A stretch of DNA of 64,000 nucleotides from positions 32,001 to 96,000 of the IMG/VR virus record IMGVR_UViG_3300025912_000012; one strand, written 5' to 3'. The stretch is from a virus (Duplodnaviria > Caudoviricetes). Under the pieces are notes generated by a model, which saw only the letters and a list, made by a program, of their open reading frames with translations, had not been told where the DNA came from and searched no databases. The position numbers and the translations under genes were made by a program. Shown here in pieces: positions 30,229 to 30,500 of the stretch (positions are counted from its first letter, which is position 1; every line of letters starts with the position of its first letter).

Positions 30229-30257
30229 TTGACAGCACTCCGGTGGCATGGTATCTT
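30229..30257 (+). promoter_or_regulatory. sigmaA-type promoter of the tRNA array
   Basis: TTGACA-17nt-TATCTT with an upstream TGn extended -10. Confidence 0.85.
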
Positions 30258-30263
30258 GGTTCC

Positions 30264-30350
30264 ATGACCACCAAGCGTGCGAAACTAGCGACAGGGCGAC
30301 AGTCGTCGTCTTGGTGCGCGTTCACGCATCCTAGGTGGCTCCCTGGTTAG
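30264..30350 (+). CDS. leaderless 28-aa leader peptide
   Basis: ATG 6 nt after the -10 box; MTTKRAKLATGRQSSSWCAFTHPRWLPG*. Confidence 0.65.
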   Translation: MTTKRAKLATGRQSSSWCAFTHPRWLPG

Positions 30351-30415
30351 GGGAAATAATCCTCTAGACAGGGAGCCCGCCAGGAGAGTAAGATTCTCAC
30401 CTGACGGGCTCTTTT
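30337..30415 (+). terminator. attenuator: antiterminator 30337-30377 overlapping intrinsic terminator 30371-30415
   Basis: GGCTCCCTG/CAGGGAGCC versus GAGCCCG/CGGGCTC-TTTT; the two stems share GGGAGCC. Confidence 0.75.
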
Positions 30416-30428
30416 CAACTGCATATAT

Positions 30429-30500
30429 GGGGAGATAGTTCAACGGTCAGAATTTCCGGCTCCAACCCGGAAGATGTGGGTTCGAATCCTACTCGCCCTG
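30429..30500 (+). tRNA. tRNA-Trp(CCA)
   Basis: cloverleaf, loop CT-CCA-AC, TTCGAAT. Confidence 0.9.

Follow-up and report, generated by a model that had tools for sequence, protein, structure and literature searches.

The leader at the head of the tRNA array of this uncultured phage is confirmed as a conserved, selected RNA element, more than a chance arrangement of motifs. In the lineage of the window (the whole stretch of 64,000 nucleotides analysed here, positions 32,001 to 96,000 of the IMG/VR record IMGVR_UViG_3300025912_000012), the leader may act as a ribosome-mediated transcription attenuator of the leaderless actinobacterial type, a reading to which we assign a probability of roughly 0.4. 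No other single explanation fits that lineage as well, but the reading rests on RNA folding in two closely similar sequences and is contradicted by a third one. The first-pass annotation, which had proposed such an attenuator, is as a whole partly supported.

The virus record is 135 kb long, with a CheckV completeness of 88%. The window has a GC content of ~57% and is present in DNA runs from soil and rhizosphere metagenomes. Its tRNA array is adjoined by an RtcB gene and includes a gene for Pth2. Features of the leader and its surroundings, with promoters and ORF as predicted and hairpins as computed, are as follows.

24582-25751, RtcB gene (PF01139, E = 1e-107), adjoining the tRNA array
30072-30227, small membrane protein gene, directly upstream of the promoter and leader
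30229-30257, plus strand, predicted sigma-A-type promoter (TTGACA at 30229-30234, 17-nt spacer, TGn-TATCTT with TATCTT at 30252-30257)
30264-30350, plus strand, predicted leaderless ORF of 28 codons (ATG 30264-30266 at the predicted transcription start site, TSS; TAG 30348-30350)
30266-30341, plus strand, hairpin H1 (segments 1:2), covering the ORF (-36.1 kcal/mol, z -3.2)
30330-30384, plus strand, hairpin A (core 30337-30377) in its extended form, the predicted antiterminator (segments 2:3; -34.2 kcal/mol)
30370-30415, plus strand, terminator-like hairpin T (segments 3:4; -27.3 kcal/mol)
30429-41402, tRNA array, at least 35 tRNA genes (about 35-40), all on the plus strand
30429-30501, plus strand, tRNA-Trp(CCA), first gene past T, beginning 13 nt after the U run
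30590-30664, plus strand, tRNA-Ala(UGC), second gene and the last ahead of the next promoter
30840-30868, plus strand, second predicted promoter (TTGACA-17-TAGATT), bounding the block that T could gate
36344-36760, PTH2 (Pth2) gene within the tRNA array (E = 1.4e-27)

A protein search with the small membrane protein encoded upstream of the leader found 32 homologues. Most of them are chromosomal genes in Streptosporangiaceae and Trebonia MAGs of 66-72% GC, which makes a high-GC actinobacterium the probable host of the phage. A scan of the Streptosporangiaceae/Trebonia MAG contigs showed that the leader is absent behind these chromosomal homologues, where a protein gene comes next, and a DNA search of the leader against five genomes of the probable host clade gave nothing better than E = 0.06. 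Translation of leaderless mRNAs is common in actinobacteria (PMC8079986; bioRxiv 10.1101/834739).

Relatives of the leader were found by one tRNA-Trp pattern scan of JGI metagenome contigs (rhizosphere). Three lineages are known, effectively two independent ones: W, the window's own (contig L074), B (L073), and C (L070, L071, L072 and L075, identical to one another across this stretch). B is ~96% identical to W, and C is strongly diverged. The order of tRNA genes in C is that of the window (Trp, Ala, Ala, Pro, Pro, Phe, Gly, Pro, Lys etc.) and its Pth2 is 67% identical to the window's; proteins encoded upstream in C have no detectable relation to those upstream in the window. Among GenBank phages, no relative of the leader stretch was detected by DNA or by protein, and IMG/VR yielded no leader relative by neighbouring proteins or by tRNA-Trp patterns. 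The lone IMG/VR match to the tRNA-Trp pattern sits inside a CDS and is a chance hit.

Promoter (TTGACA-17-TATCTT), ATG at the predicted start and 28-codon ORF are read exactly where the first-pass annotation had placed them. The A of the ATG, at the predicted TSS, is the seventh base past the -10 hexamer, and the ORF product is MTTKRAKLATGRQSSSWCAFTHPRWLPG. Conservation of the ORF upstream of related arrays had been suggested as a check, and frames of 28, 28 and 27 codons are present in W, B and C, respectively; in all three the short ORF lies at the predicted 5' end of the transcript, ahead of the candidate regulated genes. Promoter hexamers are kept and the spacer has diverged: the -10 hexamer of B is TACCTT, and C has TTGACA-18-TATTAT. 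The ATG is at the predicted start in B and 8 nt past the -10 hexamer in C, where the TAG occupies the homologous place in hairpin A.

In the promoter scan, the site at 30229 is among the two best (10/12 matches). The region as a whole has 9 promoter-like matches and 7.0 ± 2.8 are expected, which is no enrichment. This number would suit a chance arrangement, in which promoter-like hexamers, an open frame and GC-rich hairpins happen to share an intergenic spacer, and so would the length of the frame, 28 open codons being not rare in DNA of 58% GC (our estimate ~0.4). Positions of the promoters speak differently. The three TTGACA-type promoters of the array hold matching places in the window lineage and in C, which argues that they are real and weighs against chance. 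The second promoter (30840) is conserved in B, and its counterpart in C is located one tRNA further on.

The promoter scan detected no promoter-like site for tRNA-Trp or tRNA-Ala(UGC) between T and 30840, and these two genes are therefore transcribed through T. Because the internal promoters are conserved, the gated block is limited to tRNA-Trp and one or two tRNA-Ala genes. In the window, T could control tRNA-Trp and tRNA-Ala(UGC) and no other gene; the block of C additionally holds tRNA-Ala(GGC). The earlier caveat that internal promoters may bypass the leader for downstream genes thus holds. The spacer between the tRNA-Trp and tRNA-Ala genes carries the motif GCCTCTCGTACAGGC.

Free RNA of the leader (30264-30428) folds as three consecutive hairpins, H1 (30266-30341), a shortened A (30342-30372) and T (30373-30410), with dG of -76.5 kcal/mol and z = -6.5 (200 shuffles). 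Among 173 stretches of 150 nt between 29064 and 42000, the leader ranks first for structure. All features listed for it in the first-pass annotation are present, but H1, a long and imperfect hairpin lying over the whole ORF (30266-30341), had been left out. Hairpin A (30337-30377) is built of a 9-bp outer stem, a 2x2 internal loop and a 7-bp inner stem; the inner stem holds the TAG, in agreement with the claim that the ORF stops inside this hairpin. When the 5' part of the RNA is removed, A extends to 30330-30384 (~-34 kcal/mol) and T vanishes. The leader can therefore be described by four segments, with pairing 1:2 in H1, 2:3 in extended A and 3:4 in T, and segments 2 and 3 share a 15-bp complementarity. 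In untranslated RNA, folding places the 5' arm of the antiterminator within H1, where it is sequestered. Mutual exclusion of A and T, as proposed previously, is thus true of the full or extended A, which forms only when H1 is melted, but not of the shortened A, which stands next to T in the fold of the free RNA.

Between the leader ORF and the first tRNA gene lies a GC-rich hairpin, as looked for in an intrinsic terminator. The core stem of T (30373-30379/30405-30411, extendable to 30370-30414) is followed by UUUU at 30412-30415, and tRNA-Trp starts at 30429; both the hairpin with its U tract and the 13-nt distance to the tRNA gene had been noted correctly. The U tract is short: the tail reads UCUUUUC, with 4 consecutive U and 5 U in 8 nt, the canonical tract being U-rich over 7-9 nt. 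For termination, the RNA polymerase of mycobacteria depends on a U tract, and weak tracts bring about only partial termination (PMC3993855). T is not listed in a simple terminator scan because its stem holds a bulge and a mismatch. Rfam 15 has no family match for 30200-30440 or for the C leader, giving only chance hairpin-like matches (E ≥ 0.4).

Alignment of W, B and C with MAFFT followed by RNAalifold gave pair counts that are meaningless, because the alignment puts the helices out of register, and the helices were instead compared by eye and by separate folds. The C leader forms three hairpins (z = -6.95), and B likewise keeps three. In C, hairpin T has the same two-tier shape (7-8 bp, 1x1 mismatch, 4 bp) made of different base pairs, and is followed by the U-rich tail UUUCUGCUU. 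The distance from the stop codon to the 5' arm of T is exactly 22 nt in C as in W, and the sequence between conserved landmarks is largely different. B, too, retains the 22-nt spacing and a U-rich tail. Retention of the architecture across such strongly diverged sequence, together with the z values of W and C, makes a chance arrangement very improbable.

Comparison of W and B points in the same direction. Their identity is 95-97.5% in the promoter, leader and hairpins and 96-100% in the tRNAs, compared to 80.5% in the directly upstream gene and mostly 86-93% in other upstream genes, falling upstream to 33-66% where the alignment breaks down. Differences in the transcribed leader comprise five substitutions and one insertion, all at positions unpaired in both the free and the antiterminated folds. 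As unpaired positions make up 29% of the free fold, p is ~0.002, or 0.0005 when the insertion is included, and this avoidance of paired positions (p ~0.002 or less) is a further point against chance. Substitutions at 30291, 30303, 30319 and 30323 are at unpaired positions of H1 or add a pair, and in hairpin A one base is inserted in the apical loop. The B leader folds more tightly than that of W (-84.2 vs -76.5 kcal/mol) because several substitutions add pairs.

No coding signature was observed in the leader ORF, either in the W/C split over codon positions or in the W/B changes. Nucleotide differences between W and C are distributed 13/13/13 over the codon positions (hand count), and the four W to B changes in the ORF are three non-synonymous (T10A, S14P, A19V) and one synonymous. 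W and C peptides share 10 of 28 residues, and the net charge changes from about +5 to 0. These comparisons indicate purifying selection on RNA pairing but not on the sequence of the peptide. The ORF has nevertheless retained its start, an open frame, a length that varies by no more than one codon, and the position of its stop. This is suggestive of selection on the frame itself (p = 0.02-0.06 by our own estimate, from two independent lineages).

These results bear on the possibility that the leader is an independent small gene, encoding a peptide of 27-28 residues or acting as a small RNA in trans, with the tRNAs expressed by read-through as a side effect. It has its own promoter, a terminator-like end, a length of ~150 nt and conservation in three lineages, and attenuator RNAs and leader peptides of Sinorhizobium can act in trans (PMC6614838; PMC7298713). 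The peptide is nevertheless poorly conserved, as shown by both comparisons, the RNA matches no Rfam family, and tRNA-Trp and tRNA-Ala(UGC), for which no separate promoter-like site was detected, depend on transcription that passes T. We regard such a gene as improbable, and as less likely than the structured leader considered below.

To follow the effect of ribosome position on the fold, each leader, ending with the 3' arm of T, was folded while a ribosome footprint of 28 nt was blocked at every P-site codon in turn, both with pairs spanning the ribosome allowed and with such pairs forbidden. The computed probability of T in each state was:

Free RNA: W 0.79-0.86, B 0.86, C 0.85-0.87
Ribosome at codons 1-19: W 0.01-0.45, B mostly 0.00-0.08 (0.35-0.39 at three positions), C 0.85-0.87
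Ribosome from codon 22 to the stop: W 0.98-1.0, B 0.97-0.99, C 1.0

Computation thus gives three states in W and B: T in free RNA, the antiterminator with a ribosome at codons 1-19, and T again with a ribosome near the stop. The corresponding net gain on T formation in these two lineages is -7.6 kcal/mol in free RNA, -2.2 to +1.0 in the stalled state and -14.9 with a ribosome late in the ORF. When T was kept and the part upstream of it shuffled, a stalled T probability of 0.3 or lower was obtained in 1 of 250 shuffles, and none of the 250 combined low stalled T with termination when free. The first-pass proposal that complete translation leads to termination and an early stall to antitermination is consequently borne out by the footprint folds of W and B (codons ~1-19) but not by those of C. 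In C, H1, A and T do not overlap, no antiterminator was found, and T has a probability of at least 0.84 in every ribosome state, with a gain of 4-12 kcal/mol throughout. Because C forms T in all states, the switch is, by the measure of thermodynamic folding, not conserved across the family.

For the window lineage, the attenuator would work in the following way. Host sigma-A RNA polymerase would start at about A30264, giving an RNA that opens with AUG and would hence be translatable without a Shine-Dalgarno sequence. With no ribosome loaded, H1 would form first and lock the 5' arm of the antiterminator, so that T would form and transcription would stop at about 30415. A ribosome held within codons ~1-19 would keep H1 open, allowing segment 2 (30330-30345) to pair with segment 3 (30369-30384); T would then be left with no net driving force and polymerase would read into tRNA-Trp and tRNA-Ala(UGC). 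The last codons of this stall interval would include the conserved UGG, codon 17. A ribosome reaching the stop codon in hairpin A would cover segment 2, and T would form again. The outcome would be a feedback loop raising phage tRNA-Trp and tRNA-Ala when decoding is slow. The sequence features, their conservation, the selection on pairing and the computed three states of W and B are results of the analysis; the start site, use of the ORF by ribosomes, termination by T and any response to tRNA supply are inferred. RNA contigs (three runs, depth 3-8, from libraries of a kind in which small structured RNAs are lost) extend up to 30208 and resume from 30506/30519, with none on 30209-30505; a DNA run covers 30180-30427.

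We have also addressed the question of which codons would be sensed. In accordance with the first-pass statement that the leader has no run of one amino acid, neither a codon run nor enrichment was found in the ORF of W or C; Ala occurs three times, which is the background level. There are two Trp codons in W and one in C. The notion of a general sensor of tRNA depletion based on rare codons is not upheld, as the share of rare codons does not reach significance (p = 0.06 in W, 0.19 in C) and the array matches nearly any codon. Even so, the frames of W and C both contain CTA and CGA, which this phage uses least often for Leu and Arg. UGG, GCG and UUC are located at codons 17, 19 and 20 in W and at 16, 18 and 19 in C, and by folding of W and B these conserved codons are the last positions where a stall favours the antiterminator. 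As the genes that T could gate are those for tRNA-Trp and tRNA-Ala, this is a more specific hint than codon rarity. In B, the Ala codon 19 is lost and an Ala codon is gained at position 10. Apart from Met1, seven of the nine residues conserved between W and C correspond to amino acids of the first eight tRNAs, a post hoc match confounded by GC-rich codons of the stems. Matching of codons to tRNAs is without discriminating power because the tRNA set of the array is near-complete.

ALTERNATIVES

The behaviour of C, with three independent hairpins and a T that always forms, is readily explained if the element is a structured 5' leader in which T is a constitutive, leaky terminator or serves in processing, and the hairpins lend stability or insulation to the front end of the tRNA precursor. 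T would then stop read-through from the upstream lysis-like genes and a part of the transcripts from its own promoter, and RNase P would free the leader as a stable small RNA of ~150-165 nt. The ORF would be translated incidentally or never, and the switch in W and B would be a by-product of GC-rich overlapping stems. Selection on pairing and not on the peptide, as indicated by the substitutions, is in line with this explanation, as is the leader of the second promoter (30874-31005), which is also highly structured (z -5.1) without an ORF at its start. Elsewhere in the array, some dozen tRNAs likewise have a strong hairpin ahead of them that ends 1-6 nt before the tRNA, and many leaderless short ORFs of mycobacteria are translated without selection (PMC9094748). 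A structured leader of this kind leaves several features unexplained: the ATG at the predicted TSS, the frame length differing by one codon and the 22-nt spacing from stop to T in both diverged lineages, and the 15-bp complementarity of segments 2 and 3, the like of which shuffles almost never produce. T also differs from the other spacer hairpins in lying 13-28 nt from the tRNA and in having a U-rich tail, in both lineages. We consider this explanation possible, though doubtful. Structured non-tRNA RNAs that are co-transcribed with tRNAs and freed by tRNA processing, as predicted for the phage leader under such an explanation, have precedents among the stable RNAs of tRNA operons, the species 1 and 2 RNAs of T4 and 3'ETS-leuZ of E. 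coli. Those RNAs are located within or after tRNA clusters and, unlike the phage leader, are not known to have a promoter-proximal ORF or terminator.

The attenuator reading draws on a different set of known systems. In the four-segment textbook model of the E. coli trp attenuator (trpL), pairings 1:2, 2:3 and 3:4 produce three outcomes according to the state of translation, as computed for W and B. The phage leader differs in its leaderless ORF, in its stop codon, which is in segment 2 and not between segments 1 and 2 as in trpL, in the extra inner hairpin carried by each of the arms, and in the absence of tandem regulatory codons.

Closer in layout are actinobacterial attenuators, the geometry noted in the first-pass annotation being the standard one of their leaderless leaders (PMC8079986). 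Streptomyces lividans has eight identified leader peptides, encoded ahead of trpE, trpS, leuS, leuA, alaS, thrS and ilvB among others; the pairs are trpL1/trpE, trpL2/trpS, leuL/leuS and leuA, alaL/alaS, thrL/thrS, and ilvL. They are leaderless wherever a start is described and are followed by hairpins and then often by a U stretch (PMC8079986). Leaders of trp, leuA, ilvB and aroF in Corynebacterium are likewise attenuators (PMC3890552). The phage leader shares with these systems a promoter followed at once by an AUG-initial ORF (12-29 codons), hairpins and often a U stretch, as well as a place in front of genes on which the provision of charged tRNA for translation depends, and some of the actinobacterial leaders have a single regulatory codon, e.g. 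one Trp codon in trpL2 (PMC8079986). In contrast to them, it precedes tRNA genes instead of biosynthetic or synthetase genes, it has no run of a single codon, and its switch is predicted in two of three lineages. In mycobacteria, operon expression is attenuated by leaderless short ORFs that encode polycysteine (bioRxiv 10.1101/834739). There a leaderless first cistron senses decoding in an actinobacterium, as proposed for the phage leader, but these ORFs have runs of Cys codons and protein genes downstream, whereas the phage ORF has one Cys codon and is followed by tRNA genes.

A long tRNA array induced by translational stress is known in the trn operon of Anabaena sp. PCC 7120, which is controlled at its promoter by the protein repressor TrcR (PMC8421152, PMC10272220). 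Like the phage array under the attenuator reading, it consists of accessory tRNA genes that are turned on by impaired translation, and arrays of this sort are accompanied by rtcB-type repair genes and homing endonucleases. The mode of control differs, TrcR repression standing against the attenuation by a leader proposed for the phage, and the 2021 paper on the trn operon does not mention a leader, attenuator or terminator.

Attenuation by leader peptides has been described for genes of amino-acid supply and of aminoacyl-tRNA synthetases; our literature search found no report of attenuation controlling phage tRNA clusters or tRNA genes. If true, the switch would be a variant of a known mechanism, new in its target genes, by which phages regulate tRNA supply through direct ribosome feedback. 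It would explain how large tRNA arrays avoid a constant cost, and it would provide a simple sensor of tRNA depletion, with a bearing on host tRNA-nuclease defences and on the nearby RtcB and Pth2. In its broadest form, the proposal is that the phage gauges decoding by a leaderless mini-ORF, turning on tRNA-Trp and tRNA-Ala at stalls by a trp-style switch, as one instance of wider attenuator-gated tRNA arrays in phages, directed for example against tRNA-cleaving host defences; we think this rather unlikely. Should it be a structured leader only, it would still be an RNA element conserved in a group of uncultured actinophages, though of ordinary interest. A mini-ORF leader that is unstructured (z -0.9) and has no terminator was observed in Mycobacterium phage Issimir: its genes for tRNA-Pro, tRNA-Trp and tRNA-Tyr come after a promoter-like site and an ORF of 19 codons, many of them for Pro, Trp and Tyr.

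The three strongest matches to a TTGACA-type promoter within the tRNA array are found at positions that correspond between two diverged lineages, the window and lineage C, a strongly diverged relative with the same tRNA order that includes contig L071:

Window 30229, 30840 and 39769, TTGACA-type promoter matches
L071 1662, 2298 and 9185, reverse strand, TTGACA-type promoter matches

The third match lies directly 5' of a tRNA-Met in both sequences. The second (TTGACA-17-TAGATT, in the stretch 30840-31005) is followed by a 132-nt leader, which is highly structured (-60.1 kcal/mol; z of -5.1, the folding energy relative to shuffled sequences). 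Neither an ORF at its 5' end nor a U-tract terminator was observed in this 132-nt leader.

Hairpins were also found in the spacers of the array. In the segment 30502-41400, a strong hairpin with a folding energy of -17 to -34 kcal/mol stands 5' of about 12 tRNAs, including the following:

Within 30502-41400, hairpin 5' of tRNA-Ala(UGC), tRNA-Pro(UGG), tRNA-Phe, tRNA-Lys(CUU), tRNA-Asp, tRNA-Arg(ACG) and tRNA-His

These hairpins end 1-6 nt 5' of the tRNA start, and the junction is often CAT, TAT or GAT. The hairpin 5' of tRNA-Ala(UGC) is retained in lineage C, where it is built from different sequence. Such a spacer hairpin may serve as a signal for processing or for folding insulation.

Two different RNA libraries yielded contigs that start at 30506 and 30519, 5 and 18 nt past the 3' end of tRNA-Trp, and continue through tRNA-Ala(UGC). 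These contigs hint weakly that the 3' end of tRNA-Trp is processed and that transcription extends beyond T, the terminator-like hairpin at 30370-30415, although depth is low and DNA carry-over is possible.

An analogous leader was looked for in Mycobacterium phage Issimir (PQ184821.1, L173):

L173 5560-5700 (PQ184821.1 91559-91699), promoter-like site and mini-ORF

There, TTGCGC-17-TACCGT is followed 7 nt further by an ATG that opens a 19-codon frame, MFEIRPPEPRWRYQPSLGR, whose residues include four Pro, one Trp and one Tyr. A block of tRNA-Pro, tRNA-Trp and tRNA-Tyr is located directly downstream of this frame. Structure of the Issimir leader is not unusual (z of -0.9), and it carries no U-tract terminator.

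Directly 5' of the leader in the window, 30072-30227 encodes a 51-aa membrane protein with the motif AAHVVHNIG. Its chromosomal homologues (43-76% identity) were detected at 43 MAG loci of Streptosporangiaceae, Trebonia and other Actinomycetota, nearly all of them with tRNA-Ser(CGA) about 1.4 kb upstream in the same relative position. GC content is 66-72% in this MAG clade and 57% in the phage. Based on these homologues, this clade is probably that of the host, and the gene appears to be host-derived.

A PD-(D/E)XK endonuclease gene (31269-31772; PF11645, E = 7.5e-21) is located between tRNA-Ala(GGC) and tRNA-Pro(CGG). It looks like a mobile insertion, because the gap between these two tRNAs is only 162 nt in lineage B, a close metagenomic relative, compared to 598 nt in the window. 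In addition, Rfam models revealed a tRNA at 38144-38216 that is absent from the ARAGORN list, an 85-nt tmRNA match at 40506-40590 (48.9 bits, just over the gathering score of 47), and a sub-threshold tRNA-Sec-like match at 41897-41969.
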